Shown: in pieces, positions 41,943-64,000 of the stretch
Layout: each line of letters starts with the position of its first letter
How positions within the stretch are numbered: the stretch's first letter is position 1
Origin: Amphiscolops sp. MND2022
Taxonomy: Eukaryota
Length of the DNA: 64,000 bases
Assembly (NCBI GenBank): GCA_964187785.1
Contig: OZ076413.1
Span: forward strand, 31,248,001-31,312,000
Reading direction: 5' to 3'
Position numbers and translations under genes: made by a program
The notes under the pieces: model-generated
Database searches by the model: none
Seen by the model: only the letters and a program-made list of their open reading frames with translations
Told to the model about the DNA's origin: nothing

Positions 41943-44900
41943 TAGCGCAGTCAGCCGATTTTTAAAACAAATTGAAAACTTCTTAACAAAACAAAGCCAT
42001 GACAGAGAAAAACACAGTACCGAACCTCGAAGTAAGGGCTTCGGACGGAAATGCAATATTCACACCAAGACAGTGGTTAAAACTATTCACTAAAAAGGGA
42101 ACATAAAATGGACATCGCACAACTAACAAAAGGAGAAGACATCACCGAATGGAAGGGAAAAGAATAGCCTATCCATAGAGATTTTATCTGGGGGTGGGAC
42201 CCGAAGCATTGTATGAAATAACCCGCGCCGAATACAAAACGGAACCGGATAGTATCAAGATAAAGACATGTACCGGGTATTTACTGAACACTACTTACCG
42301 AAACGAAACACGTACCACAACCTCGGAGACGTTTGTTGGGCAAAGCAAACGGAGGAAGAAACACCCGAAAAATTCTGGAGAAGATTGATCGAAATTGAAA
42401 AAGAATGTAAATTTAGCAGAATATCAGCCGAAGAACTATTGACATCCAAATATATGACGGCAATCACCGATAAAAAGTTACGGGACAAAATGATGAAAGG
42501 AAAAACACTGGAATTGAAAAAAAACAATCGAACTAATAAAGCAAAACACATACAAAAAGAAGAACAAGGAACATACGATACCGGAAGCATTGATTTCGGC
42601 AAAGAAAGACACACAATAAAAGAAGAACCGATACGAAGAATGGAAAGGTTCGGCGCAAGACCAAAAACCAAAACGACGTGGAATAGACCATGCAGACTTT
42701 GCGGAGCACCGAAGTGGACACAATTACACAAATGTCCAGCAAAAGAAACAAATTGCAACAAATGCGGAAGAAAAGAACACTACGCAAAGGTATGTAGACA
42801 AAAATATACCAACAATTGAACAGTGAAAAAACTAATCGAAGAAGAAACTGATGACCGAGTCGAAACATCAAGTGAATTGGAAAAGAGTATACACCATATC
42901 AGAGAGATAAAGAAATTAAAGAAAAGAACAAACAATACACAGCAACAGTGAAAAGAAACGGAAAGAGGAAAAAATTTATAATCGACATCGGATCATCGAT
43001 AACGATAATGCCACCGGACGAAACGAAATAACCGGGATACAGAAAATCACAAACAGATACCAAGACGTAAACAAGAACGAAGTGAAATTCGGTTTATCTA
43101 CCTAATACCGGGACATTATTTGGGTGAACAAAAAGCTAGACCGGTACCACTCCACCTACAAGAAGATGTAGTACGGGAATTAGAAAAACTACTAAAAACC
43201 GGACATCTAGACGAGATCAGTGATATGAATGAAGACTGTTTTGTATCACCGGTAGTAATAACTGTAAAAAGCGATAAATCGGTAAAGATAGCACTAGATG
43301 CACGGAAACTAAACGATAGCTGTATCAAAATGAGACCACACATGCCAAACATGGAGGAGTTATTCATTCAGATTTCGGTACAAATAACCCGCGACCGAAC
43401 AGTACAACTATTCATATCAGAAGCAGATTTAGATTACACATCCCCGACAGATGAAACTATCCGAAAAAAGCAAGCCGACAATGCGCCTTCGCAATTGCCA
43501 GGGGAATATTTAGCGGATATTACCGATTCAAAGAAAAGTTTTTGGTCTTGCCGACACACCCACGATATTCCAAGAAAAAATCGACCGAACACTCGGTTAC
43601 AGCACACCAGCCTGGCTAGACAACATAATTGTAGTAACCCGGGGGAACAAACAAGAACCCGATAATAAACTATTTGATGTTCTAAACAAACTGGAAAAAG
43701 CCGGATTCCGAGCGAGTAAAAGAAAATCCGAAATTTTAATGACTCGAACGAAATGGTGGGGCCACGAGATTGACGAAAACGGAATGAAACCAATTGAAGA
43801 AAAAGTAGAAGCCAATTTAAAACTGAACTCACCGGAAAATACAAAAGAACTAAAATTTTTTCTTGGAGCAATCCAATACATGGCTAAATTCCTACCGAAA
43901 CTCTCGGAAAGGACGGACAGACAAAGAATGAGACGTGAAAGTGGGCAACCGAACAAGAAGAAGACTTTGGAAAAATAAAACAAATGTTAATTGAAGGCCC
44001 ATGTCTTGCACACTACGCGAAAGATAAAGAAAACATAGTAACGACCGATGCGAGTACGATCGGATTGGGAATTACGCTATGGCAAAGACAACATGACAAA
44101 AACACTAAATCGATAGCATACAGAAGCCGATATTTGAATAATACCGAAAAGCAATATTCCATCGGTGAACTAGAATTACTGGCGGTGGTATTGGGATTAG
44201 AAAAATTCCGATTTTATCTATACGGAAATAAAGTTCATCTTTTTACCAAACACCAACCATTAGAACTGTTTATAATAAAACCGAAGCAATAAACAATATA
44301 GTGCGATATTAACGAGATGGCTGGATCGCCTAGTTCTTTTCGATATAGCAATAGAGCACATCGCAGGCAGTAACTTCAAACTCACAGTTTTTCTCAGCAT
44401 AAACCCGGTAGGGGGAGCCATGCCGGAAGAAAATTACAATGAAGAATATATAATTAAAATACTTGCCGAACAAGCGGACTTAAACTTGAAATACGGACAA
44501 CTATTCGCAGTTCAATCAAAATGCAGCGAAACCATAACCGAAAGGAAGAAGAATGATTCCGAGAAATAAATTGAGCACAAAGCAAACCAATCACAAAAGA
44601 TTAGAACAATCGAGAACAAAAACCACGTGAACGAAACCGAACAAAACAAAATAACAACATCCGGGCAGTCCGAAATTATCACTCTGAAAATCAGTAAACT
44701 GAACGAAAAGAAAGCAAACGAGAAATTGGACCGCAAAAATCTTTATCACCGGAGAACTCCCGGAGAAATCATGGACATCATCAAAAGAAATAAAAACAGC
44801 CCCGAATCAAGAAGACTGGTAGAACAACGCAAAGCGCTATCACGGCCAGGAACATTGAGACGCCGGTAATACTATCAAACACAAAGAACTGTATTTGCAC

Positions 44901-46972: not shown

Positions 46973-48345
46973 ATCATATCGGGACCAAAACAGTAGTTTT
47001 CGATCATCCAAACAAGCGTGTGATTCTTTTGGTTGACTTTTTCATCTGTGAAGAAATGCCTTCTGATGTTTCGCAATTATTTCGCGAAATCAATTATCAG
47101 GTATGTTATTACCGTTTATGGAACAGTTGCAAAAAGAAACCTGAAGAAAATTGCACTTTCTCATTGAAAAATTTTGGGGGCTATTTTTTTCTCGAGTCAC
47201 TTGCGGATGTGTTTCCTACAGATTACAGTAGAACTGTTGCAAAAAGAAAACAATCTGCAACTGGTTGAAACACGTGGAGCTAATACCAAATAGCTTACAA
47301 GAAATGAGTCGAACTCAAATACATATGCTCGTCAACAGAATAGGACAATTTTATGATATTATTTCCATTTTCTTTTAAATATCCAAAGCCGATTCTCTGG
47401 GGTGGGGATTCGAAGAGCGATTGTTATCCTTCCCCATCCCTATTGGGTATTTTTAATTAATTACCCTAGAAAGTTGGTTTATTGTTTACATCCAATAGAA
47501 TTAACTTTCTCTTTCTCCTGTGAAGCTATAGCCGTGAATATATTGTTGCTCCAATGAGGCCTCCCGGCTCTTCACATAAACTTCTTAACCAAAATGTAGA
47601 AAATTCCGAAAGGCCACTATACCTCCTGTTCCGTATTCTCAATCCATTTTCATGATAGCCACAAACAGATGATGTTAATGATACTTTTTTGGAATAAGTT
47701 TTTTGAAAGTGCTGCACAGTGCTGTACGTGCGATATAATTGTGGTTATTCGCCATGAACGGAACCTCAAAATATTGGATGCAAGAGCGTCACAACGAACC
47801 AACCATTCACAAGCTCTAACTTCCAAATATTCTTGAGTCTCAAAGTATTGAGGTGTTTTCTTGGTTCTATGAATTTTTAACGATCAATCAATGATGAAAT
47901 GTTGCATAAATAAACTTTAGAATATCTTGAAATGAATCTCTAGAAGCAGAATTGTTAGAAGCCAACTCCCACATTTCAATTGAAGAATAATAATTCTTTC
48001 CAAGAGTATTTTGATCAAAAATTCTCTGAGCGAGAAGTTTCAGACCAGTTCAAACTGGACGCGGATGGTATAAATGGGAAGTTTCCTTCCAGCAGATGGT
48101 GGCTAACTTGGTTTCATTTGGTGATCGTTCGTCTCAAGCTTTGGCAAAAAAAACAGGAATGAACTTTGAATAATTTTGCTCAAATTATTGATGCGTTAAG
48201 CTGAACTTCTATTTTGGCAGCAGCCTCCATCTAGAGTGCATCAAAAATATGAAATAACGCGAGAGCAATGGTGAAAAATTTTTATTAACTATTGCTTCAA
48301 ACTTGTATTCACGTTTACAGAATGAAAAATTTAATTTTGTCATCA

Positions 48346-48682
48346 TGTAAAATCTTTTGATTGATGCCAAAGATTTGTATGAGAAGAAACGTCTATTCAG
48401 CTTTTTAATGACAAATCCAAACAAGAGAATAATTACCGCCAGCTCAAAGTTTGATCACCAAATTACAAAAGAATATGACTCACTTTTTGATCTGAATAGC
48501 AAGGCCATTTCGAGAGTATTTTTACCGAAATCGGAGAAATATTTCCAAAATATAAAATATTTTGCATGTCCGGGAATCGAACCCACGCCGGTCAAATACC
48601 GGCCTTGTACTCTACCGCTGAGCCAAGCTGCCTTATAATTTGTTTGTTTTAAATTAACGATATTTGTATTGCTATCGCAACA
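48346..48682 (-). repeat. 3' LTR of the Bel/Pao element
   Basis: Direct repeat of 56942-57278. Confidence 0.97.
48563..48631 (-). ncRNA. tRNA-like Pol III-type unit in the 3' LTR (not a canonical tRNA)
   Basis: GCAGCTTGGCTCAGCGGTAGAGTACAAGGCCGGTATTTGACCGGCGTGGGTTCGATTCCCGGACATGCA contains an A box (TGGCTCAGCGG), a B box (GGTTCGATTCC), D-arm and T-arm stems, and is followed by TTTT runs. Confidence 0.65.
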
Positions 48683-48825: not shown

Positions 48826-51800
48826 TTATGATAAATCAATTAAATCAGGGGAAGGAAGGACTGGGGCTAGTTTCACGACCGGACGGACAAGGTTTCCAGA
48901 CGTGGTTTTAACTTCGGCAGAGCGAGCGACAGCATCGCTGCCAAAATGGAGTTTGATGACACGTGCGAGAGGGTAGTAGCCTCTCGGGTTAGTGGGTTCT
49001 ACAATCCAAACGAGATCTCCGGTTTTCAATTGCCTGTTGGACTGTGTGCACCACTTTGAGCGACGATTCAAAGTCGGCACGTACTCTTTAAGCCACCTGT
49101 TCCAGATAGCGTCAGAATAAGCTTGGGCGCGTGCATATCGCTTGCGGTGGTCGAAATCACAGTTAGAATGGGACGGTAGAGACGATCCAGCTGTTCCAAG
49201 CAAGAAGTGGTTAGGTGTCAAAGCATCCAAGTCAGTTGCATCTGCGCTTGCTGGAATCAGCGGACGAGCGTTGAGGCTCTGCTCCACAAGACAAAACACC
49301 GTTGTTAGAATTTCGTCAGTCAAGCGTCGGTTGCCGAGTATCGCATAGAAAGTATGCTTAAAACTTCTCACTAGCCTTTCCCAGACACCGCCATGGTGTG
49401 GAGCACTAGGAGGATTAAACTTCCACCTGACACCTTTCTTTACCATAGACTCAGCAATTGACTGTTGATTCCACTTGAGAACGTTCTGGAGGAGTTCTTT
49501 CTCTGACGCAACGAAATTAGTCCCATTGTCTGACAAGATAACAGAAGGGATGCCCCTACGAGAAACAAATCTCTCAATTCCCATGACGCAACTGCTGGTG
49601 TCCATTGTTGGCACAACTTCGAAATGGACAGCGCGAGTTGTAAGACATGTGAAGAGAAATCCCCACCGCTTCTCTGTGGAGCGTTTAACGGAGACGTAGA
49701 AGGGGCCAAAGTAGTCCAAGCCAGTATTTGTAAAAGGTCGCGATGAAAAGACCAAGCGTTCTTTTGGCAGATCTGCCATAATCGGGGTCAGCGTTTCCGC
49801 TTTACGTTTGCGACATGTTACGCATCTGGTTTGGATCGTTCTTAAGGTCGTTCGCAGTTTGACAATGGCAAACTTCTGTTGTATCAAGGCTCTCAAGTAC
49901 TCGACGCCTTGATGGCAGTGTTTCTCATGAAGATGTTCTAAAAATAAACGAACTGCGGGGTGCCGGCTATCGAGTAAAATAGGGTGTTTGACGTCAAAGT
50001 TGGCAATTTCCAGATGTTTTGTTCGACCTTGAGCACGGAGAAGGCCGTTTGGACCGATAAAGGGGGAGAAATCTTTTATAACTGAAGGCTTGCTCAATGA
50101 ACAAGTCTTCAGCAGATTTTTTGTTTCGTTCGGGAACGTTTCGGACTGTACCAAGAAGAACAATTTTTGTTCAGCACTTTCAAGCTCGACAGGATCAGTA
50201 ATTGCTCCTGTTTTAGTTCTGTTACCAGAGAATCTCGGCAAAATACGCAAAATGAATGCAACAATGCGCAAAAGTTTCTCGTACGAGCTGTACCTTTGCC
50301 ATTCGAGAGTTAGGACATTAGGAGTTACACTTGCGGTATTTGCTGTTGTCTCTTGGTAGACTGAGTCGGCGTTGCTTTCATTGGAATCATAGTTTTTCAA
50401 TTTATTTTTCAAGATCTCTTCCGACGGCTGAAAAGGCCAATCAGGAGTCATCAAGAACTTGGGACCTTTGAGCCAAGAACTGTCAAAAAGGGCTTTTGCC
50501 GGCAGACCGCGCGTGCCCGCGTCTGCCGGGTTGTCGGCTGTTGGCACGTGGTTCCATTCGTCAACTGTCGTCAACTCAAGAACTTCGGCAACTCTGTTGG
50601 CGACAAATACGGGTTTTTTGTCAATGGAATGGAGCCATTGGAGCACAGTTGTACTATCGGTCCACATGAACGTTCGCTCAACAGGTACCGTGAGTGCTTG
50701 TTGAACTTCATCCTTTAGTCGGGCTGCTAAGAGTGCGGCTTGGAGTTCCAATTTCGGTATTGTGAGCGCTTTCATCGGGGCAACACGAGCTTTCCCAAAG
50801 ACAAAGGCTAACTGGGTTTCAGTCATCTCGTTGCGGCTCACTCGCGCACGGAGGAAAGCAACAGCGGCAAAGACATCTTGAGAGCTGTCGCCGAAAACGT
50901 GTAACTCAACACTTCTCATGGTTCCACGAAAATAACATCTCGGAATGGTTATTTCGCTCAAATTGGGGAGCTCTGCAGCCCATTCAAGAAACTTTTTGCT
51001 AACGTTGTCAGGCAGATTGTTGTCCCATTGTTGCCCACTCAGGCGCCAAATGTCTTTCAACAAAAGGCGGGCTGTTACAGTATATGGTGCCGCAAGACCA
51101 ATGGGATCATACACCGCGGACACTAAACTAAGGACAACACGCTGTGTTACTGGTCGATTCAAGTCAGGTGTAGTTCCTCTGCTGACAACCAAGGTGTCAC
51201 GACTATGGTTCCATTTCAAACCCAAAACATGCGAGGTCTCTTCATTTGTTACTAAGACTTTCTCGTTCGATTCGGCAGGCAGTTGATATTTCGGGTCGAC
51301 AATTTTCACCAAACCTGGAACATTACTGACAAACTTGGTTAGGTTGAAACCACCTTTGGCCAACATTTCAACAAGATCTTGAGCCTTCTTGGTGGCTTCG
51401 TTGACGGTGGGGCTTGATTCAAGATAATCGTCCATGTAAAAATTGTTTTCGACACTGTTGGCGGCTTCAAGAAATTGGATTCGGTTGTCACGAGCAGTCT
51501 GTTGCAAAGCGTAGTTGGCACACGTTGGCGAATCCTTCGAACCGAAGATGTGACGTACGTATTGGTACACAGCGACGTCTGTTGCTGGGTCCTCTCGCCA
51601 CAGAAAACGAAGAGACGGTCGGTCTTCAGGGATCACACCAACTTGTAAAAACATTCCCTCGATGTCAGCGGATACAGCATAGGGATGTTGTCGGAATCGC
51701 ATGAGCACATGGATTAACGTTTGCAACAAGTCAGGACCAGTTAAAAGTTTGCTGTTCAGTGAAACACCATGAAATTTCGCTGCACCATTGAGTACACGGC

Positions 51801-54800
51801 GTACTTTTCCTGGCTTGTGAGGGTGGAACACTGGGTGGTGCGGTAGATACCACTCACGCTGATTGTCAATTCTGAAACAGTCTGACTTGTCGACTTGAAC
51901 GATGTATCCCTTGTCGAAGTCGTCCTTAATGGTCTGAGCGTAACTCGCTTTCAGTTCAGGAGTTTTTTCGAATCGGCGTTCAAGGGATTTCAATTGCACT
52001 AAGGCTGAAAAATAGTTGTTCGGGAGACTACTCTCGTCATCAGCCCACAACATACCGACCTGATATCGGCATCCGTCATGATATGTTGTTTCTTGTAAAA
52101 TCTTCGACGCTCTAGCATCGTCAGCAGAGCGCGGGTCTATTTGTTTCATTGCAGCAAACGACTCCAATTCATACCAACTCCGAAGTTGATCGGCCAACTT
52201 GGAGTCAGCCTCGCTTTGCGTGACAGCTTTGAAGCAAGTCGAGACGAGTCCTGTAGTCGAAGGTAATGGTCCACTCAAAACCCAACCCAACGGTAATCGG
52301 ACGGCAATTGGGGTATTTTTTCGGTCGGATTCAAAATACTCCAACGGGCGGATTGAGTGGAACACGTCTTGACCCAGTATCATTTCGACGTCTCCATAAG
52401 TGTACTTGCTTAGAGCGACGGGCTCCAAATGAGGGTACTGTTGCTTCAATTGGTCAACATCAATGACATCGTTTCCAACATGCAAGTTTTTTCTGACGTA
52501 AGGTTTGACATCGAAAGTAGAGCAAGAGCCACCCGAATGAACAGGTGTCAACTTAAGCTCAACTATTTGAGTGTCAACAACTTGTTGAGAATTGATGCCA
52601 TGAACAGTTAGTTTGGTCGGTAAGCCCTTTACGTTCAACTTGGTTGCGAGATCTTCGGAGATCCAAGAGTGACTGCAGGCTGAGTCACACAGTGCCAATA
52701 CCTTGGCGGAAGTAGTCGAAGTGTGAACTTCAACTTCAGTAATTTGGAGCAGTCCTTTCACATCGGTCACGGAACAAACTCCGGAGCTCTCTCCAGCTTT
52801 ATTCACAGTTGTTTTGAGGTTACGCGATCCAGTTGCTTGGTTACTGGACGATTTCGGTGTCGTTTTTGGTTGGAAAACTCTCTCTGCGCCATGTAGCAGG
52901 GTGTTATGAGAGCTGTTACATCCATCTTTGTTGCACTTTCGTGGTTGCGGACATTGTCGGAAAGAATGGTTTCCTTTCAGGCAGGAGAAACAAAGTTTGT
53001 TTTCGGCAACAATCTTTGCTCTGTCGGTCGGCGTTTTATCAAGGAACACGCGACAGCGCCACAGTGGATGGTTATCCTTGCACACGTTACAGTTTAGTTG
53101 CACTTGATTTGGCTTAGTTCTGGATTCTTTTGAAGATGCGCTAGAACTTGTTGCGGCAAAAACTTTCGTACCAGTCTTTGTTCGAGTAACTGATTGCGCA
53201 CTTTCATCGCTCTTGGGCTTTGTGGTTGAGATTTTCATCCTCTCATGTGCTTCGGCTTTATCTTTCAACCATTCGTTAAAATCCAAGAGGGTTGGTCGGC
53301 TCCAATCTTTCTTGACAGTGTGCATAGACCAAGCTTCTCTCATGTTTGGGGGTAGTTTCTGCACGGCTTGACCCAATAAGGCTGCACTTGACAAATCGTG
53401 TTCGTATTTCAGCGAACGGAACACGCCAACCATAGCGGAAATTGTTGCAGAAAATGCTATCACATTCTCGCTGTTATGCATTTTCAATGGAGGGAAGCTA
53501 TTCAGTTTGTCAAGATGAGCAGACACAACTGCCTGTGGTTGACCAAATTTCCGCTCGAGCGTCTTCAGTGCATCTTGGTACATAGTCCCACAGTATGCAA
53601 ATTCCACAATTGCTGCCTTCGCTTTGCCTGTCACAAGCGTTTTTAAATACGTCAGCTTAACATCATTCGAGAGTGGTGCGGAGTCGATAGCACTCCTAAA
53701 CTGACCTATCCACTCGTGCCACTGCAATGGGTCTCCGCTATATTGCTCTAGTTTCCACTCAGGAAGATGGTCTTTTTTGGCAGCAGTCAGTAACTGCCCA
53801 AGGTCTTGGACAGCAACTGGAGTTAGCGTTGAAGGGGGAACGGTCGACTGGACTGTAGTCGGAAACGTTGAAACTGGAAAATTCGCGGCGGCTGCTGTAG
53901 TCTGTTGAATTGGTAAAGTTGTTGTTGGAAATGTTGTCGCAAGAGGGTTACAGTAGAAGGTTGTTCCTCCACTTTGGATTGGTACAACTGGTGTGAAAAT
54001 CCCGGTTGTGGTCACTATTGGTGTTGTAGTTGTGCTCGTTAACGTAACTGGTCCTCTTACAGGCTGCGGAACTGTAGCATGTACTGTGGGGAAGCTACTC
54101 GGAGCCGGAAATGTCCAAGCAGACAAGTTCGGTATGACATGGCTCGTTGGGATGTTGACTTGAGTCATTGTCGTAGTCGGAGCGAAAGACGGTTGTATTT
54201 GCGAGGACATAGTTAGAGGTTGCTGATTTACCACTGGCACTGTCACGGAAGAAACAGTGTTCGATGTGGTGTTCACGGTTGGTAATTGGAAATTGGGCAG
54301 TGGGTTAACCGCAGCAAGTGAAGGTGGAGTACTGTTTGGCTTTGGAATTGTATAAACGGTCGAAGTTCCGATTGGGGAAATCTGGCTTTGTCCCAGCCCA
54401 ATGTTAACATCAGCTAATGATCTCATCTCTAGCGTTGCTTGTTTCATTTGAACACCATCGTTTGATTCAGGAATGAATGCGGTGTTGGACGATCCAGTCA
54501 CATTGTTTAAATTAACTGTATTGGTCTGCGGTTGATTTGAAACACTATCAGGTTCATTGACTTCATTGACCCAGTCAGACACTCGCTGGGACGTGGTTTG
54601 CTTCGAGTGTGTACTAATCCGAGACAGAGTTTCACGAAATTCGTCGGTCGCTTGAGACAAGTCGTCAGTTAATTCCAATTCGGTGAGCTTGGCTTCGGCA
54701 AGTTTTCGTCTGTTTTCTTCTTCTAGTTCTTCCAATTGGAGAGCTTGTTCTTCTTCCAACCGCTGTTTTTCGCGTTCCAGTTGTTTTAGTGCTACTTCTT

Positions 54801-55305
54801 GTTTCTGTTTAGCCAAACGAATGGCGTTCGCGTTTTGTCGTTCTAGTTCTTCTCGGCGTTGGGTTGCTAGAAGAAGATCTTTTTGTCTTTGACTCGACGT
54901 TTTTGTTTTACCTGAAGTTGATGATCTTTTGGAGGCGCTTTTGTTGACTGTGCCGACTGATGAGCGGGACTTTACATCGGATCCGGTGCAACTGTCGATG
55001 TATTCACGAGCTTTTCTCAAAATTTCGTCGTTTTGCTCAGTGACTTCTCTCAACCATTTTTCTAAGTCGGCTTGAACTGTTTCCGAGTCAGAAGTTTTAG
55101 ATGCAAGCGTAATCAGCTGTTCGTTTCTGGTAAATGCTTTCGTCATTGCATCTTCGGTTTCCTTGACAAGACGTTCGACTCGAACCCTTCGATCTCCATT
55201 TGTAATGGAATCGAGTATCTTTTGTTGGAGGGTGTTCAACTCAGTCTGCGCCTTCAATCGATTGTCGTAGAGTTTTTGAACTTTTTCTTGTTGGGAATCT
55301 GTCAT
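48826..55305 (-). CDS. Bel/Pao gag-pol polyprotein (2159 aa)
   Basis: DUF1759-like gag (LPEWKLEQYSGDPLQW), three Cys/His knuckles, PR (ALCDSACS), RT (ADIEGMFLQ, YMDD), Pao RNase H (LHVFGDSS, WTDS), IN (HEKHCH..CVTC, GLDYFGP, SDNGTNF, GGVWER), and a C-terminal WLKEY domain. Confidence 0.97.
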   Translation of the reverse strand: MTDSQQEKVQKLYDNRLKAQTELNTLQQKILDSITNGDRRVRVERLVKETEDAMTKAFTRNEQLITLASKTSDSETVQADLEKWLREVTEQNDEILRKAREYIDSCTGSDVKSRSSVGTVNKSASKRSSTSGKTKTSSQRQKDLLLATQRREELERQNANAIRLAKQKQEVALKQLEREKQRLEEEQALQLEELEEENRRKLAEAKLTELELTDDLSQATDEFRETLSRISTHSKQTTSQRVSDWVNEVNEPDSVSNQPQTNTVNLNNVTGSSNTAFIPESNDGVQMKQATLEMRSLADVNIGLGQSQISPIGTSTVYTIPKPNSTPPSLAAVNPLPNFQLPTVNTTSNTVSSVTVPVVNQQPLTMSSQIQPSFAPTTTMTQVNIPTSHVIPNLSAWTFPAPSSFPTVHATVPQPVRGPVTLTSTTTTPIVTTTGIFTPVVPIQSGGTTFYCNPLATTFPTTTLPIQQTTAAAANFPVSTFPTTVQSTVPPSTLTPVAVQDLGQLLTAAKKDHLPEWKLEQYSGDPLQWHEWIGQFRSAIDSAPLSNDVKLTYLKTLVTGKAKAAIVEFAYCGTMYQDALKTLERKFGQPQAVVSAHLDKLNSFPPLKMHNSENVIAFSATISAMVGVFRSLKYEHDLSSAALLGQAVQKLPPNMREAWSMHTVKKDWSRPTLLDFNEWLKDKAEAHERMKISTTKPKSDESAQSVTRTKTGTKVFAATSSSASSKESRTKPNQVQLNCNVCKDNHPLWRCRVFLDKTPTDRAKIVAENKLCFSCLKGNHSFRQCPQPRKCNKDGCNSSHNTLLHGAERVFQPKTTPKSSSNQATGSRNLKTTVNKAGESSGVCSVTDVKGLLQITEVEVHTSTTSAKVLALCDSACSHSWISEDLATKLNVKGLPTKLTVHGINSQQVVDTQIVELKLTPVHSGGSCSTFDVKPYVRKNLHVGNDVIDVDQLKQQYPHLEPVALSKYTYGDVEMILGQDVFHSIRPLEYFESDRKNTPIAVRLPLGWVLSGPLPSTTGLVSTCFKAVTQSEADSKLADQLRSWYELESFAAMKQIDPRSADDARASKILQETTYHDGCRYQVGMLWADDESSLPNNYFSALVQLKSLERRFEKTPELKASYAQTIKDDFDKGYIVQVDKSDCFRIDNQREWYLPHHPVFHPHKPGKVRRVLNGAAKFHGVSLNSKLLTGPDLLQTLIHVLMRFRQHPYAVSADIEGMFLQVGVIPEDRPSLRFLWREDPATDVAVYQYVRHIFGSKDSPTCANYALQQTARDNRIQFLEAANSVENNFYMDDYLESSPTVNEATKKAQDLVEMLAKGGFNLTKFVSNVPGLVKIVDPKYQLPAESNEKVLVTNEETSHVLGLKWNHSRDTLVVSRGTTPDLNRPVTQRVVLSLVSAVYDPIGLAAPYTVTARLLLKDIWRLSGQQWDNNLPDNVSKKFLEWAAELPNLSEITIPRCYFRGTMRSVELHVFGDSSQDVFAAVAFLRARVSRNEMTETQLAFVFGKARVAPMKALTIPKLELQAALLAARLKDEVQQALTVPVERTFMWTDSTTVLQWLHSIDKKPVFVANRVAEVLELTTVDEWNHVPTADNPADAGTRGLPAKALFDSSWLKGPKFLMTPDWPFQPSEEILKNKLKNYDSNESNADSVYQETTANTASVTPNVLTLEWQRYSSYEKLLRIVAFILRILPRFSGNRTKTGAITDPVELESAEQKLFFLVQSETFPNETKNLLKTCSLSKPSVIKDFSPFIGPNGLLRAQGRTKHLEIANFDVKHPILLDSRHPAVRLFLEHLHEKHCHQGVEYLRALIQQKFAIVKLRTTLRTIQTRCVTCRKRKAETLTPIMADLPKERLVFSSRPFTNTGLDYFGPFYVSVKRSTEKRWGFLFTCLTTRAVHFEVVPTMDTSSCVMGIERFVSRRGIPSVILSDNGTNFVASEKELLQNVLKWNQQSIAESMVKKGVRWKFNPPSAPHHGGVWERLVRSFKHTFYAILGNRRLTDEILTTVFCLVEQSLNARPLIPASADATDLDALTPNHFLLGTAGSSLPSHSNCDFDHRKRYARAQAYSDAIWNRWLKEYVPTLNRRSKWCTQSNRQLKTGDLVWIVEPTNPRGYYPLARVIKLHFGSDAVARSAEVKTTSGNLVRPVVKLAPVLPSPDLIDLS

Positions 55306-55533
55306 CTTGCCTGTTTTTTTTTGTTTAGGCTAAAAGAAGACAGTCACGATGGGTCGCACGGTGTACGACAGATTAAAAGGGAACACGCTGCTGTTTAGGG
55401 TGGGAGTTCCTTCTGAACATCAACCGAGCAGTTAAGCTCGGACACAGCACAGAAAGGAAAGGAGGAAGCGGGTTGCAGCGTCAACCGGTCAGTTAAGTCC
55501 GGACACAGCTACAACTCGAGACGTGGGGGTGGT

Positions 55534-56136
55534 TTACTCGGTGGCAGCAGACAACGTGTTTTTTATTGCCTTGCGGGCGCGTTTAGAGGGTCGTTTGGGG
55601 CGACTACGGGCAGTAATTTGAGACAAATCATCTTCATATTTCAAAATTGTATGCAAATGTTTCAATTCCAGATCGGGGCTCTGATGTAGTGCCTTCAAAT
55701 TTTGCAAATAGTCTGAATCTTTTTGCTTTCGCAATGAAATGAGGTCTTTTTCAATGCTCAAGACTAGGATGTTAGTTTTCTGCAATTCGGCAAAAATGTC
55801 TGGCGTTCGGTCACGTTGGCAGTACACTAGAGCCCTGATCCTGTTTTGATATGATTTCAATACTTCAATTAAAGTTGGAACGGGAAGAGCACGATAAAAG
55901 TTACTCTTGTGCTTGCAAATAGTATTGTTTATAACATCATGTCAAATTATTAGGTCTTTTTCGTCTTTGAAGTCCTTTTCAATCAAGTTCTGAACTACTT
56001 TTTTAGGATTTTTTGCGTTAATGTTCAAGCTCAGGCCCGGTATGGAATAAACTTTTTCTTTTAGAGCGTTTTGATTTTCGGGGTTAATAGTTTCTATTGC
56101 ATGATGCAACGAACTAGCAGCTAATATGAAAACCAT
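55534..56136 (-). pseudogene. Accessory ORF with SGNH/GDSL-hydrolase-like motifs (one in-frame TGA)
   Basis: ORFs 55942-56136 and 55534-55860 are in the same frame and separated only by TGA at 55942-44: MVFILAASSLHHA..YSIPGLSL..DLII*HDVINNTI..ALVYCQR..ALHQSPDLELK. The fold assignment is by motif spacing only. Confidence 0.55.
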
Positions 56137-56343: not shown

Positions 56344-56941
56344 TCAGTTAAAATTGTTCAAACAAATGTTTTTTTTTTCAAGTATCTCTACAGATTGCTT
56401 CTGATATAAGAAAAGTGGGTTTCGTCCAAAGTTACCAAAAGCAATCGACGTTTCGGGTCTTCCATGAATAATTCTGATTTTATCGCCCACTTTGACAGTA
56501 CACTTTTCACCATCGGGGATGCGATAAGTGTGGTCACCTGTTTGCACCAGACACGAGCTGCTGCTGCTGCTGTTGGTATTGCCAGCGTCAGCAATACCTC
56601 CTCCCCCATTCACTGTGCCATTGCTGTTAGCCACAGAGGCCACAGTCTGCTGCAAGTCTTCTTTCTGCAGCTTCTGCAGACACTTCTGTTTCAGTTTCTT
56701 CTGCTGCTTCAGCTGCTGTGCGTGTGTGGAAGCTCCTACTCTCTCAGGGTACTGTCTTCTTTCCCTGTCCCTTTCTGATACCACCACTGGTGCTTTGGTA
56801 CTGGGCGATGAAGCAGCCCGTATTGAGTCACCCTCCTTGGATGACGTAACAATCGGGGAACCCGCCCCGCTTTTGGGGTTAGAGATAGAGTCTACGGTAA
56901 CGGCGGATGTGGGGGTGGAAGCTGCCTCTCTATGGCCACCA
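56344..56941 (-). other. GC-richer, low-complexity open frame (S/T/Q/K-rich) in the Bel/Pao leader
   Basis: The frame is open from the LTR end through 56344 (GGHREAASTPTS...QQLKQQKKLKQ...NSSSSSS). It is the same frame as the SGNH-like ORF but separated from it by a stop-rich, AT-rich spacer. Confidence 0.35.
56928..56941 (-). promoter_or_regulatory. Primer-binding site of the Bel/Pao element
   Basis: TGGTGGCC.. immediately follows the 5' LTR, and TGG is complementary to tRNA CCA. I could not identify the primer tRNA. Confidence 0.7.
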
Positions 56942-57278
56942 TGTAAAATCTTTTGATTGATGCCAAAGATTTGTATGAGAAGAAACGTCTATTCAGCTTT
57001 TTAATGACAAATCCAAACAAGAGAATAATTACCGCCAGCTCAAAGTTTGATCACCAAATTACAAAAGAATATGACTCACTTTTTGATCTGAATAGCAAGG
57101 CCATTTCGAGAGTATTTTTACCGAAATCGGAGAAATATTTCCAAAATATAAAATATTTTGCATGTCCGGGAATCGAACCCACGCCGGTCAAATACCGGCC
57201 TTGTACTCTACCGCTGAGCCAAGCTGCCTTATAATTTGTTTGTTTTAAATTAACGATATTTGTATTGCTATCGCAACA
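56942..57278 (-). repeat. 5' LTR of the Bel/Pao element
   Basis: Direct repeat of 48346-48682, adjacent to the PBS. Confidence 0.97.
57159..57227 (-). ncRNA. tRNA-like Pol III-type unit in the 5' LTR
   Basis: Same sequence as 48563-48631. Confidence 0.65.
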
Positions 57279-57608
57279 CATCAGCTTGCAAGTTTCATGA
57301 ATGGCATTCTCGAAGGTCATTTGACAGCCATTTCATTACCAACGTCGATTTTAATTTAGAGAGGTTGCATTTTCACATATTCGTTGTGTCATGAAAAACC
57401 TTTTTTTTCATTATTTTTCATGAGAAATTTTTCATCATTATGATTGTATTTTTAACGACTTTCATGAAATTGAAATGTCATAATCACTGAATTAGCCGAT
57501 CACTTTCGAATTCCTATTCTTACATGGGAGAATTTTGTTACGGATTGCAATTAACGTTAGGAAAATTCAAAAAATTTTACACTCGCTGAAAAGCAGTGAA
57601 TCACAGAG

Positions 57609-57738: not shown

Positions 57739-58179
57739 GTAAGTTTCAACACAATTTTAACATGACCAATTTTTTTAAAAAGCATACTTATTTGAGTATA
57801 GCCATACTTGCGCAAAGATTAGTTAGCGAATCAATTATTAACTAAGTTAAATTCTATTGGCCTCTTTAAGCCTGGTCTAAAAAACTGGGTCTAAAACAAC
57901 TGGCTAAACTGGTTAATTCAGAAAACTAAGCGCCACCACAATTGGTTCCAGGGACTGAAAAACACCAGAAAAGTTCCAAAAACAGGTTTCAAATAATGAA
58001 GAAATGTTGGTTAAAATTCTATTCAAGGTGCCGCTTCAAGAAAAGAAAGTATCGACCTCCCATTACAATTCAAAATATATATAGTTTTATGTAGTTACTT
58101 CATGCGTATTTCAAATGATACAGATAATTGGTCTAACCTTTAGTTTTTTATCATCGATAAAAGTACTGAAGTTTTTAAG

Positions 58180-58466
58180 GATGTTCAATCATCTTCAGAA
58201 GCTCCTATATCAGCCTCGTGATCATATTCATGGTGATGACCCTCTATCTAGTAATCGGTGCCATCGTGTTCTCGGAAATTGAAGAAGAAACAGAAATTAA
58301 ATCGAAGCGGCAGACTCAATTGAAGATGAAAGAGGCCTCTGAAGAAGCAATCACCAAAGTTGTCAACTTATCTGTGTCTTCAATTTGCAACCAGACCAGT
58401 TGGACTTTGGACCAATGCATTAACAGTGTCGATAAAAGAGAAGTCCACAAAACTGTGTTCCAATTG
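58180..58466 (+). CDS. K2P potassium channel exon: M1 helix and extracellular cap
   Basis: ..SYISLVIIFMVMTLYLVIGAIVFSEIEEETE.. matches the K2P M1 pattern YL.IGA.VF..lE. The GTAAGC donor at 58467 is phase 0. Confidence 0.85.
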
Positions 58467-61424
58467 GTAAGCGTCGTGAGAGAATTGCATTTTCCAATAT
58501 ACAATTTTCACTTTGGTAGGATCTTTTTCATCCGAGGATTAGAATTACTAGGTAATAAAGAATAGCAGAAAATTTATTGAGACTGTCAAAAAATGAGACA
58601 AAAGATATTGAAAAAAAAAGAGTTTTGATAAAAGAGACGATCTAAGAGCTGATTCTTTGCACAAAATGGCTTGAACAAATTAGTAATTTTTAATAAGACA
58701 AGTTTTAATTCCGATGAGCACGAGAAAGTGAAAGGAATAACCGGCGTGTGAATCCAAATGGTAGTTCGTGTCAAAGTGCGTGCAAAAATTGCAAAAAAGT
58801 GCAAAAAAAGTGCAAAACAATTCCATGGGGAATGAAAAGTGAAAAATATTTGTATGATATATCGAACAAATACAAATTATAATTTGCTGACATTGATGAA
58901 ATTTTTGCAGCAGCGTAAATTGTGTCTCCATGGATACTGTTCAGGAGAGAAGAGATGACTACCAGATAACATCGGTATCATGAATAAAAGCACCATAATT
59001 ACAACTAATAATAACTTATGCGTACCCCGAAGAGAACAATATTCGGTAGTATTTGTAAAAAAAAGCGGTTGAAAGAGCGAGTTCAACGCTGATATGTTAT
59101 AATGGTCATAAAATGTTTTATTGTATGAAAAAACTAATTGTCATATCCAAAATCCATTTTTATGGCTTGTACGTTCCTCCATAATTTACAACCGCGCGAC
59201 CTGAATGACAGAAAACTCATATTACTGTTTTTTTTCTTAAGAATAAGAGTTTCTTTCTAGCCCATTTCATGAGTTAACACGAACGTTGAACATAAAAACA
59301 TGTATTTGAATAGCCTGCAGAAGAACCCGGTGCTCCGCTTAGAGCTCAGGTGCATTTTTTTTAATAGCTAAAGAGCTGTGTTTAATGTTGGAAAAAATAT
59401 TTTTCAAAAAAAATACTGGAATTCTATACCATCCAGATTATTGAAAACGTTTTTCTCTTAAACTCTAAGCAACAAAAATGTGCACCTTTTTGCGCAAGGC
59501 TCGCGTAAGATAAAGGCCTACAATGGCACGCAAAACCTTAGAAAAGCTCAACATATACAGCTAACGGGTTTTTGTAACATTGATTCCTATAACTCTCGAG
59601 ACGTAAAGATACTTTTTTGGAGGATCATTTTTGTTCTCAGTATTTTTTGTAAAAATTTTGCGGAATTCTTCCAGAACCTAACAGCCATTGTCTCCGTACC
59701 AGAAACTTTTTGGATACACAAGTTACGAGAACATTTGCAGTGCTTCTTGGCGCATTGCGTTTGATAACTCCTGATACGAAAAGATGCCTTATTGGAGCAT
59801 TAATTGTGGCCAGGAAGCTTTTAGCAGAATTTTGTGAAACGTTCCGAAAATTAATGGCCAATTCCTCCGTAAAAGAAATTTTTTAAAACACAAATTACAT
59901 GAAAATTCGCAGCGCTTCTTGTTCCTTCGATTCATAAAACTTTCACGCTCATTGACTAAGGTTAAATATTTTAATTGACTAAACAAAATTTGCCTCCTCA
60001 ATTTTATCGATTTTCAAACTTCCGTCGCAGAAAAATAATCAAAAATTTTTTGACGACAACCAAAATTTACACCATTGTCAATTCCGAGCTTGTGGAGTTT
60101 TTTTCAAAAACGTAGAACGCTCCGGTTACTGGATTTCGATATATAACGCTTCGAAGAAAAGCAGCGGAGAGGGATGTCACAGTTTCAGACCGGTAGATTG
60201 AAAAACCAGTCAGTTCGTTCATATTTCAGTGGCAAAAGGCTTCACTCCGCCTACGTTACGAAAACGATTGGCGATTTATTGATTCTGAGAAAGATGACAA
60301 TTTCTACTTTGAAAGATATATATTTTTTCAAATTTCTAGCCTCCAGATTTAATGAGTACTAAGCAATGCCGAAGAGTACCGCCTTTGAATTTTCCATCTT
60401 TATACAAAATCTAGAAAATTACATAATTTTGTTCAATAATCTACCCCCATTGTTTTCTTCGACACGGTAAAAATTTTCGAAAAATTTATAAAAGCGCTTC
60501 GAAACATTTGAAAATTGAAAAAAAATGCGCTTTTTCAGCTTTGAGCAGAGCCCGACTTAGAACGTTCCCGTCTTGTTCTGTAATCCTCTTCAGCCTCATA
60601 CTGAAGTGTCCTTTTTTGTTCAAAATTTTCAATTTCATCAGTTTTGTTTGTCATTGAGCAATTGCAAAATGTATTCTGCAAGTTGAAACAGTTTACAACG
60701 CTACACGTTGCCAAATGGTTCCTCCCTTCGATTTTTCTGGAACGTTTTTCTGGAACGTCAAGTCAGCACCTCGCTAAGAGCTCGAAAAACGCAAAGTCTC
60801 ATGAATATGGCTTTGAGCAAACTTTCATGGATTTCACATATTCAAAAAATAAAACAAAAAGGCACCCTACACAGCTTTTCTCTGCCAAGAATTGCTGAAA
60901 AAAAACGAAGTTTTGTGAAAAAACGTTGTAGAAACTTAGAAAAAATGTTGCCCTGAAAAGTCGCACACTGCTAAAAAACACCGAATGGTTTCAACCATTG
61001 CCATTTTCTAGTCTTGTAATACTTGTAATATGGTAAATACATACATTTCAGACTTGCTTCCGAAGCTAAACAAATTGAACAAAAACGTGAACCATTCAAA
61101 GTGAGAACTTACCAAAAAAGAGACAAAACTTGCCTCTGTAAGCTCGTTAACTATTGAAAAATTCTTCGATATTACTAAGCTTTAGGCGGGGTGCCGAATT
61201 AATCCGTTCCCGGCTTGTAAAACCTTGCAGGCGATTCAAGAACATTTCGGGAAGAATGATATGGAAAAGCTGGAGTGCTTGACGTATTGATAGAAATAAT
61301 GGTGATTATGATGAGTTTCAATTATAACTGGGCTGGATCAGTGTAGTTATTCTTGATAAATCATTTCAATTCAATGGAATGTCGCCCAAATACAGACCAG
61401 ACCGAATAGACCTTTTTAATGCAG

Positions 61425-61551
61425 ATCAATTTTATTATGGAAGAATTGGGCGAACATACATTCCAAGTGGACTCAGAGCCATCTGACGTCATTGTTCACT
61501 GGGACTTTGCAGGAGCCTTCTACTTCTGTTTGACCACCGTCACTACTATTG
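61425..61551 (+). CDS. K2P potassium channel exon: pore helix P1
   Basis: Acceptor ttttaatgcag|atc is phase 0. It encodes ..HWDFAGAFYFCLTTVTTIG, with the GTAAGT donor splitting the first G of the G(Y/F)G filter. The gene continues beyond the window. Confidence 0.9.
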
Positions 61552-61671
61552 GTAAGTGTTTCGCGTTTGCATTGTTTTTGCTCAGTGCAAAAGTTATACG
61601 GTTCATCCGTCTAGTGACCTCTACCGCATTCCGGTTTACCAACCTAGTCTGAAAGTACAGACTTTACGAGT

Positions 61672-62892
61672 TGTTAGTAAACAAACTCAGAAAACAGTTT
61701 AGATTACATACATACATACACTCTTGATATATATTTATTGGTTGATATATATTAATTGGAATGAAGCTGCATAATTGAAAACGCTACATTTTACAATCTT
61801 TTCCTCCGTTCTTAGATACCTTAGCTTTAGAATACAACATGGCGCAGTCAGCCGATTTTTACATTGAACAGAAATTTTTATAGCTGCGAAAATCACCGAA
61901 AGTAGAAGCAAAGGCCGCAGACGAGAACTCGGTGTTGACACCGAAACACTGGTTAGAACGATTTCGGCAGTTCACGAAACGTGAACATACAATATACATC
62001 ACACCAATGATAAAAGGAGAAGGCAAAACAGACAGAAGAAGAAACACTCGAAGAATTTTGGAGAAGTCTAATTGAGGTAGAAAAAGAATGCAATTTCAAT
62101 ACTATCACAGCCAAAGAACTGCTGATATCTAAATATATGACAGCGATCACTGATAAAAATCTACGAAACAAACTGACGAAAGAAAAAACAATAGAACTGG
62201 AAAAAAACGATCGAATTAATCAAACAAAACACCTATGAGAAAAAGAACAAGAAAAATACAATCCCGGAAGTAAAAATATCGGCAAAAGAAAAACAATTTA
62301 TAAAAGAAGAACCAATACAAAGATGGGAGAGATTCGGTACGAGACTAAAAAAGAAGAACAACAGAGAACAGACCATGCAGATATTGCGGAGTACAAAACT
62401 GGACACCAATACACAAATGCCCGGCGATAGAAACAAATTGCAACCAATGTTGGAAAAAAGGACACGACGCAGTGTGCAGACAAAAATACATCAACAACCG
62501 AACAGTGGAAAAACTAACCGAAGAAGAAATTGATACCCGAAACGAGACATCAAGCGAATTAGACGAAACTCTCTACCACATTAAAAAACAAATAAAAAAT
62601 TGAAGAGAAAAACAAACAATACACGGCAACAGTGAAAATAAGCGGGATAAAGAAAGGATATATAATCCACACCGGATTGCCGATAACAATAATGCCACCA
62701 GACGAGAAGATTCTAAAGTTAACCGGATTAGAGAAAATCACTAACAGATATCAAGATCTAGTTAAAAACGAAGTAAAATTCCGAGGAAAAATCCCGGTAA
62801 ACCTAGAATATGAGAACAAAAAACAAAAAATGGAAATTCTCATAACCGAAAGATCCGACATAACACCTCTTCTCGGAACGGACTGGATGAAG
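61672..62892 (+). mobile_element. Gypsy 5' fragment (candidate LTR, PBS, deleted gag, PR) in the K2P intron
   Basis: ..ACA|TGGCGCAGTCAG is a Ser-tRNA-type PBS at 61840. The fragment is homologous to 41943-43080 with an internal gag deletion, and has a PR-like IIHTGLPITIMP. The LTR start at 61672 is tentative. Confidence 0.75.
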
Positions 62893-64000
62893 TGTAACGT
62901 CTGCCACCGGCATGACCAAAATTTCGATGAAAAATTCGAAATGTGCGATGTCAAAGTAGAAGAAAAAAGATGGCCGACGTGACAGGTACAAAAAGTGTGA
63001 AAGAAAAAAGATAACACGCGGAGAGCGAGCAAAAAAGAGAACACGTGCCGGAGAGACAGCAGAAAAAGATGAAAAAGCAAGAAGATCGAGGAATGTCAGA
63101 ATGGCGATTATCGGGAAGTTGTGTCATCTCCTACGAAATTCAACAATTTCAGATGAAGATTGCCAGAGGGATATTCCGAATTATGGCTTGAAACTGTGAA
63201 GTAATTGGGGTTTGTCCCCGTTTTTCCTTGTTATTTTCATAATTCCCTTCGACATTTGGAAGATGTTTGAGCTTCTAGGTCATTTTATATCTTATTTCCC
63301 AAATATTATGTTTTCCAGCTAAATCACTGTTTTGACCTCGGAAGCATGTAGGAACTCGCAGGAGTACATTAGAAACCTTAGGAATGTTTTTACAGACTTG
63401 TGGGGCGTGTCCGGACTTTGAGAGTGCCGGCGCGTCGCTTCGGAGCTCTAACTAGAGAAGCCTCCTTAGACGTTAGAAAAGTCCCCCTTGGAGACCATTT
63501 TGGGATCAAAAACTAGTGTCTAGGTATGTAGTAAGACAACGGTCTCCTGTTTAAGCATCCTAGGCATTGTCCCTCTTCCTAGATGTGCGTCGCTAGCCGG
63601 TCGTTACATCTGGAATAGTTTTTATGGCGACCACAGAGGGATATTTTTCATATTGCGTACAGGTAGGAGCAACTTCTGCTTTCCGGCCCCGAAGGGTCCA
63701 GATCTAGGAAAACGTTTTGGGAGGGTCCTAGATTATTTTTATAGCATTTTTCTGGCCCTCTGGGCTTTGTACTAGTGTAATTCTTGCGTTTTCCCCGTGT
63801 TTCTGAGGTCTACTTAGAGAAATTAACCGTTCTTAACAGTGTACCCCCTTTTTTCCTCACTAAAACCTAATAAAGAAGCTATTCCGGCCTATCCGGAACG
63901 TGTTTTAAAGGGTTTTCTAGCTTATTTTCAGCTAATTTGCAATGTATGGGGACAGAGAGGACGAGCGCCGAAGGTTCCCACCAGCTGTGATGACGTGGTG
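62893..64000 (+). mobile_element. Probable nested LTR interrupting the Gypsy fragment (window-truncated)
   Basis: Gypsy homology stops abruptly at ggactggatgaag|TGTAAC, and unrelated non-coding sequence follows to the window end. Confidence 0.4.

Follow-up and report, generated by a model that had tools for sequence, protein, structure and literature searches.

A portable accessory gene with a predicted SGNH fold is carried by Bel/Pao, Gypsy, LINE and Helitron-like transposons

The 64,000-nucleotide stretch of the Amphiscolops sp. MND2022 genome analyzed here (contig OZ076413.1, positions 31,248,001 to 31,312,000; referred to as the window) contains a Bel/Pao retrotransposon with an additional open reading frame (ORF) upstream of its gag-pol. 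Is this ORF a gene, what protein does it encode, and what could such a protein do for a transposon? A sequence-only reading of the window had reported a frame of about 200 codons with one TGA between the primer-binding site (PBS) and gag. This frame was found, and it is on the minus strand, which had been left unstated. The short SGNH-like motifs quoted in that reading and the basic tail were all present in the minus-strand translation. The features of the element are as follows:

56942..57278, minus strand: 5' LTR of 337 bp with the same sequence as the 3' LTR; its target-site duplication occupies 57279-57283
56925..56941, minus strand: PBS, which begins with TGG directly after the LTR
56364..56924, minus strand: leader with a Gln/Ser-rich open frame, found in 1 of 29 other loci compared
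55534..56136, minus strand: accessory ORF, in which residues 1-174 have a predicted SGNH fold and a basic tail follows; TGA at codon 65
55306..55533, minus strand: spacer with two similar motifs of ~30 nt and a pyrimidine tract plus AG
48826..55305, minus strand: Bel/Pao gag-pol, a single intact frame with DUF1759, protease, RT, Peptidase_A17, integrase and DUF5641
48346..48682, minus strand: 3' LTR; target-site duplication at 48341-48345

All the features of Bel/Pao membership were present, i.e., LTRs, a PBS and a single gag-pol, whose 2167-codon open frame contained DUF1759, Peptidase_A17, DUF5641, RT and integrase. The LTRs were 337 bp each and flanked by a 5-bp target duplication. Comparison of the LTRs over 342 bases, as read from the sequence, revealed one mismatch, which fell outside the LTR. 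The element is very young. Inside the LTR, A-box and B-box motifs recognized by eye mark a tRNA-like stretch at window positions 57160-57225, and again at the same place in the 3' LTR. For the PBS and this stretch, ARAGORN identified no tRNA and Rfam returned only a chance row. The leader (56364-56924) was CAG-rich with a 214-codon open frame that lacked ATG and may be a captured host piece. In the spacer, the pyrimidine tract plus AG located ~30 nt before the gag ATG is, by eye, a possible splice acceptor. Elsewhere in the window, exon-like frames at 58179-58565 and 61410-61652 on the plus strand may belong to a two-pore potassium channel gene, judging from a motif, and two related copies of decayed Gypsy-like gag/protease fragments, identified by eye, were found at 62195-62982 on the plus strand and at 42663-43026.

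The accessory ORF started with an ATG at position 56136, 800 nt past the PBS region, and ended after 200 codons with a TAA at 55534, ~230 nt ahead of the gag-pol ATG. The TGA at codon 65 was the only in-frame stop, and the plus strand of 55534..56136 was riddled with stops. A first look at the species' own genome (1.07 Gb) yielded 3464 candidate copies. The search for copies with an intact ORF, which the sequence-only reading had proposed, showed that 117 of the 150 best own-genome matches listed were stop-free, as counted by eye with some matches being partial. No stop at codon 65 was found in the 29 other loci compared. Moreover, each of the 20 close copies taken (58-99.5% identity) preceded a Bel/Pao gag-pol and shared its strand.

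Among 46 distinct copies from 50 loci, the median dN/dS was 0.08-0.12 for pS above 0.3. In the same 46 copies, dN/dS reached 0.66 among near-identical pairs, the expected pattern because copies decay after insertion. In matched pairs of moderate divergence, dN/dS was 0.06-0.09 for the module and 0.03-0.14 for gag, RT and integrase. Thus, the constraint on the accessory ORF that had been anticipated was found, with a dN/dS of ~0.1, similar to that of gag, RT and integrase. The accessory ORF is a real gene and more than a chance frame; an assembly artefact or chance ORF was ruled out by its multiple copies and the selection on it. In one pair of loci (L077 and L076), the pS of the module was 0.46, yet that of gag, RT and integrase was only 0.01-0.06; this difference is a recombination patch between subfamilies. 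That the ORF might be useless to the element, either as a neutral passenger or as a fragment captured from a host gene, would agree with the broken frame in the very young window copy and with the absence of the ORF from most sampled Bel/Pao elements. However, a dN/dS of ~0.1 across copies, the constant slot of the ORF in all 20 close copies and a position-dependent purge of AUG (described below) all speak against it. We consider this explanation very improbable, and it is largely refuted by the dN/dS.

Sequence searches did not reveal what the ORF encodes. Pfam, including Lipase_GDSL and Lipase_GDSL_2, gave no match for the window protein or for 27 family members, a PDB sequence search returned nothing useful for the accessory protein, and the ESM Atlas yielded leads under 0.9 or none. 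Structure models were built from 27 and 89 sequences, with pLDDT of 84 and 96.1, respectively, and both predicted a flavodoxin-like alpha/beta/alpha fold with five strands. Among 48161 solved chains, the best matches were SGNH hydrolases, with a Z of 10.6 and an rmsd of 3.2 across 138 residues. They had also topped an earlier structural comparison (Z 10.3), and the matches spanned residues 1-174. The majority of the best 50 structural matches listed were GDSL esterases or acetyltransferases by title. The remaining ones, which include phage tail esterases, viral HE and OSK (Z 8.2), presumably take the SGNH fold too. Matches without a full triad were OSK and a CE2-type Ser-His dyad enzyme (Z 8.7). 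Foldseek matched SGNH proteins with a probability of 1.00, an E of about 1e-3 and a TM of about 0.5, and a viral structure library gave only weak SGNH rows (best E 1.7e-3). Z values of ~10 and a TM of about 0.5 indicate moderate structural similarity. The SGNH fold suggested by the sequence-only reading was therefore borne out at the level of the model (pLDDT 96), the structural search (Z 10.6) and Foldseek (probability 1.00). Support for the predicted SGNH fold is thus good, and the family must have diverged far, because the Foldseek probability of 1.00 comes with an E of about 1e-3 and a TM of about 0.5.

The link to SGNH proteins was seen through structure only, as sequence and profile searches were blind to it. 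Profile-profile comparison with canonical SGNH sets gave probabilities of 20.8 (misregistered), under 10 and under 1, with no correct alignment, so the catalytic register cannot be confirmed by profile comparison. The esterase of the LINE ZfL2-1 was absent among the best 50 structural matches listed; this excludes nothing, and its crystal form is described as domain-swapped (PMC3905857).

In 89 diverse sequences, the conserved residues were Ser8 (82), Gly34 (82), His66 (85), Asp67 (82), Asn70 (74), Asn71 (81), Arg108 (78), His151 (85) and Glu157 (79). These residues, Ser8, Gly34, His66, Asn70 and His151 among them, were kept in every element class that carries the module, and the Ser and His were among the best-kept positions in a family whose overall identity is about 30-40%. 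By topology, Ser8 is placed within a G/A-A-S motif at the start of the helix that follows strand 1 (residues 3-6). Gly34 comes after strand 2 (residues 29-31), and the stretch from His66 to Asn70 after strand 3. His151 is directly ahead of the last core helix and is followed by Pro in 44 sequences. The block III region reads H-D-x-x-N-N, where the canonical motif is G-x-N-D, and its register was taken from the spacing of H191 and N195 in ZfL2-1. Blocks I and III were both atypical, and the Asn70 position was Ser in 13 of 89 sequences. The order of the residues and the His-to-Asn spacing parallel S143, G165, H191, N195 and H282 of ZfL2-1 (PMC3905857). From this topology and spacing, the S, G, N and H roles would map to Ser8, Gly34, Asn70 and His151, respectively.

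The block V DxxH, whose absence had been pointed out before, was indeed missing: none of 59 modules had an Asp three residues before the His, and two had a Glu there. The role of the Asp might be taken over by Glu157, found in 79 of 89 sequences, or by position 146, where 45 of 89 have an acidic residue. From the missing DxxH, the sequence-only reading had concluded that the protein is probably non-catalytic. This conclusion was not supported, given the conservation of Ser8, Gly34, Asn70 and His151 and the description of SGNH enzymes without the catalytic Asp, in which a backbone carbonyl takes its place (PMC10792757, PMC9487903). A catalytically dead SGNH domain that, like OSK, only binds RNA or lipid could account for the lack of a block V Asp in all 59 modules, for the atypical blocks I and III, for the strongly basic protein, for OSK being among the structural matches at Z 8.2 and for Pfam being blind to the family. 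However, OSK is described as lacking the catalytic triad (PMC10792757), the family retained Ser and His among its best-kept residues despite ~30-40% overall identity, enzymes outscored OSK structurally, and SGNH enzymes with a Ser-His dyad exist (PMC9487903). We regard such a dead binder as unlikely. The accessory protein is probably active as an enzyme, because Ser and His are conserved and dyad enzymes are known, whereas OSK is without the triad.

The proteins were strongly basic, with a median net charge of +24, and at least 30% of the tail residues were Arg or Lys in 71 of 87 sequences. The median best hydropathy over 19 residues was 0.93, and 1 of 59 modules reached the membrane-span threshold of 1.6. 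An env or FAST-like fusogen was thus ruled out by the lack of a membrane span, and the role in cell-to-cell movement that had been raised for the ORF found no support in the same count.

The family was not restricted to Bel/Pao. Its profile collected 824 clusters at 50% identity, and the ten clusters checked were unnamed. Among 40 stretches of 10 kb, which were hand-picked from searches for distant members and chosen for diversity rather than randomly, 17 copies were in Bel/Pao, 11 in LINE, 2 in Gypsy and 4 in Helitron-like contexts, and 6 could not be assigned. The contexts were called with Pfam on selected ORFs and, for the remaining ones, by similarity to those. The Bel/Pao carriers fell into three lineages, and the LINE contexts consisted of endonuclease and/or RT, often with a PHD-type ORF1. 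The DNA common to LINE copies extended from just ahead of the module through ORF2 (5.3 kb and 4.5 kb). In Gypsy copies it reached from one LTR to the other, and in Helitron-like copies from the helicase up to and including the module. The module is therefore part of the elements themselves. It was first in retroelements and last in Helitron-like elements. In nearly all 59 modules it was a stand-alone ORF of ~190-220 codons, with a separate ORF1 or gag downstream in retroelements.

In addition, 18 metagenome loci with 29-43% identity had LINE RT/EN, PHD ORF1, Bel-like gag (by eye) and PIF1/GIY-YIG contexts, so the family is not confined to the Amphiscolops genome. Pattern-limited searches confirmed no relatives in viral contigs or prokaryote genomes, and no longer fused forms appeared among 7997 candidates, which is weak evidence. 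In the Helitron-like loci L164 (2-6805), L168 and L140, the Rep/helicase ended in a GIY-YIG domain and was followed by the module. The module copies of L169, L170 and L177 were in elements of unassigned class with weak SET-domain matches nearby and, in L177, DUF1258; these are perhaps another DNA transposon class. Those of L106, L108 and L165 were within tandem-repeat arrays that contained no recognizable element ORF.

The tree of 59 modules interleaved the element classes. It contained 4 class changes for the Bel/Pao lineage of the window and 9 for the LINEs, of which the starred branches force 4 and 6, respectively. With labels fixed before the tree, 10 unassigned rows excluded and L167 outside the tree, monophyly of the 27 Bel/Pao modules against 22 others was rejected (p-AU 0.00025). 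An RT tree of 26 of these elements, built by a quick method, placed each of the three Bel/Pao lineages in one clade, and in the 11-row clade of the window the RT and module trees were mostly concordant. Concordance at short range together with interleaving at depth points to vertical inheritance over short distances and swaps at depth. As the module tree is unrooted, no donor is claimed. A capture specific to Bel/Pao was rejected by the contexts in other classes and the interleaved tree. The occurrence of the ORF beyond Bel/Pao had escaped the sequence-only reading, as had the SGNH ORFs previously described for LTR elements (PMC5408684).

The gene is optional for the elements. Among 20 Bel/Pao loci chosen by their Peptidase_A17 score, 3 contained the family and 17 did not, and none of 12 independently picked Gypsy loci had it. 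Four of these 17 Bel/Pao loci held a second SGNH family of ~200 amino acid residues in the same pre-gag slot. This second family (L187:3104-3739, L190:6001-6606, L196, L197 and L246-L259) possessed near-canonical Ser, Gly, GGND and DxxH motifs, a C-terminal Cys cluster and a weak match to Pfam GDSL_2, and contained one Met in 2720 residues. It was within both LTRs in L246 and L247, and was also found ahead of LINE and Gypsy ORFs. Profile comparison found no similarity between the two families. Finally, in a Gypsy family (L143-L150 and L154), a canonical SGNH domain either followed the integrase or shared its reading frame.

How the downstream ORFs could be translated was suggested by the distribution of ATG. 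Where the module is upstream, 8 in-frame ATGs were found in 8716 codons (7 of 5268 in Bel/Pao, 1 of 3060 in LINEs and 0 of 388 in Gypsy), and where it is last, as in Helitron-like copies, 15 were found in 737 codons; these counts come from related rather than independent rows. ATG made up 1.5% of the downstream ORFs. The mean number of out-of-frame ATGs, compared with codon shuffles, was 0.5 versus 3.6 in LINEs, 2.6 versus 4.2 in Bel/Pao and 7.5 versus 6.3 in Helitron-like copies. This pattern, which is clear in LINEs and partial in Bel/Pao, fits ribosomes that scan through the module and reach the following ORF of a single RNA. In the lineage of the window, most copies retained 3-8 out-of-frame ATGs, and the window copy had 5 in the module and 6 in the leader. 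Leaky scanning is therefore doubtful in this lineage, which may splice instead.

We propose that the ORF is a portable transposon accessory gene under purifying selection, whose product, with its predicted SGNH fold, likely works as a Ser-His esterase on a lipid-like substrate of the host; we rate this proposal as a whole at about an even chance. The protein would be a soluble and likely low-turnover enzyme, with Ser8 as the nucleophile, His151 as the base and Gly34 and Asn70 forming the oxyanion hole without the usual Asp. Its very basic surface and Arg/Lys tail could retain it on acidic membranes or RNA, by analogy with the ZfL2-1 esterase, from which the presumed lipid substrate is also borrowed. 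The accessory ORF would be the first cistron of the element RNA, and the purge of internal AUGs would let ribosomes continue to ORF1 or gag, with splicing as an alternative in Bel/Pao. Esterase activity on the host substrate would benefit whichever element carries the gene, and transfer between classes might occur via recombination or template switching. The broken window copy may be supplied by intact copies, or the element may do without the protein. A role in a cytoplasmic RNP fits the Helitron-like carriers poorly.

The presence of the family in Helitron-like elements, which lack a capsid or ORF1 particle, the occupation of the same slots by a second, unrelated SGNH family and the tail rich in Arg and Lys (30% or more in 71 of 87 sequences) could also be explained by an active deacylase that acts against a host defence or chromatin component, with the tail serving as a nuclear signal. 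Anti-silencing action of this kind would therefore lead DNA and RNA transposons alike to retain the gene. However, its target is hypothetical, the ZfL2-1 esterase is described as inactive on acetylated histone peptides (PMC3905857), and a trans-acting gene would be harder to hold under such selection in each element lineage. We find an anti-silencing deacylase improbable.

The esterase proposed here resembles several known systems. Vesta LTR elements of bdelloid rotifers carry a GDSL/SGNH ORF3 that is common to Athena Penelope-like elements (PMC5408684). Similar to Vesta and Athena, the family is a stand-alone SGNH accessory ORF that occurs in an LTR element and in several retroelement classes and has no transmembrane part. 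Different from Vesta ORF3, which is described with canonical catalytic residues and no departure from neutrality within the genome (PMC5408684), the family precedes gag in Bel/Pao, has no Asp in block V and evolves under strong purifying selection, and its members are found in LINE and Helitron-like elements as well. Non-LTR elements of the CR1, L2 and RTEX groups, such as ZfL2-1, encode an ORF1p esterase (PMC3905857, PMC4120745), with which the family shares the SGNH fold (predicted here), the 5' position, a His that precedes the putative block III Asn by four residues and an Arg-rich peptide. The ZfL2-1 esterase, however, is described as part of an ORF1p that also has a coiled coil, and its Ser-His-Asp triad is complete (PMC3905857), whereas the family is a separate ORF before a complete ORF1, often PHD-type, or gag and has no detectable similarity to canonical SGNH sequences.

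The Texim SGNH hydrolase of fish Helitrons, read as a host-gene capture (PMC4021074), is likewise an SGNH gene within a DNA transposon of the rolling-circle type; judging by its description, it differs from the Helitron-like copies identified here, whose family is otherwise one of retroelements. Similar to OSK and CE2-type dyad enzymes (PMC10792757, PMC9487903), the family combines the SGNH fold (predicted here) with an incomplete triad, but OSK is reported to have lost the catalytic residues, whereas the family retains Ser and His, as the dyad enzymes do. MDG1-group Gypsy elements contain constrained sORF1 and sORF2 between LTR and gag (bioRxiv 10.1101/2025.03.14.642691); sORF2 is described as a short membrane fusogen, whereas the family is a soluble globular domain of 200 residues (predicted). 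Judged by its predicted superfamily fold, the family would act like a transposon-borne SGNH esterase, but it differs from canonical DxxH enzymes and is not a domain of ORF1p. In the literature, Repbase and subscription journals excepted, we found no description of this family, of a pre-gag SGNH ORF in Bel/Pao or of one such family across four classes. SGNH extras were already known in LINE ORF1, rotifer Vesta/Athena and fish Helitrons.

The role of transposon-borne esterases has been an open question since their discovery in LINE ORF1. The family represents a large accessory gene family overlooked by Pfam and PDB sequence searches, and it supplies hundreds of diverse, selected, soluble, single-domain members, while close Bel/Pao relatives offer natural comparisons with and without the gene. 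Since LTR, non-LTR and rolling-circle elements all carry it, its benefit is arguably independent of capsid, ORF1 particle and integration route, and such a class-independent benefit narrows the hypotheses on the function of transposon esterases. As a more tentative extension, which is possible but on the doubtful side, one cryptic SGNH family, together with the second, independent one, may be exchanged between elements of the Bel/Pao, Gypsy, LINE and Helitron-like classes and act on a host component that limits all mobile elements. If so, these genes would form a counter-defence gene pool common to eukaryotic transposons, and their target might be, for example, a silencing factor or a lipid of germline membranes.
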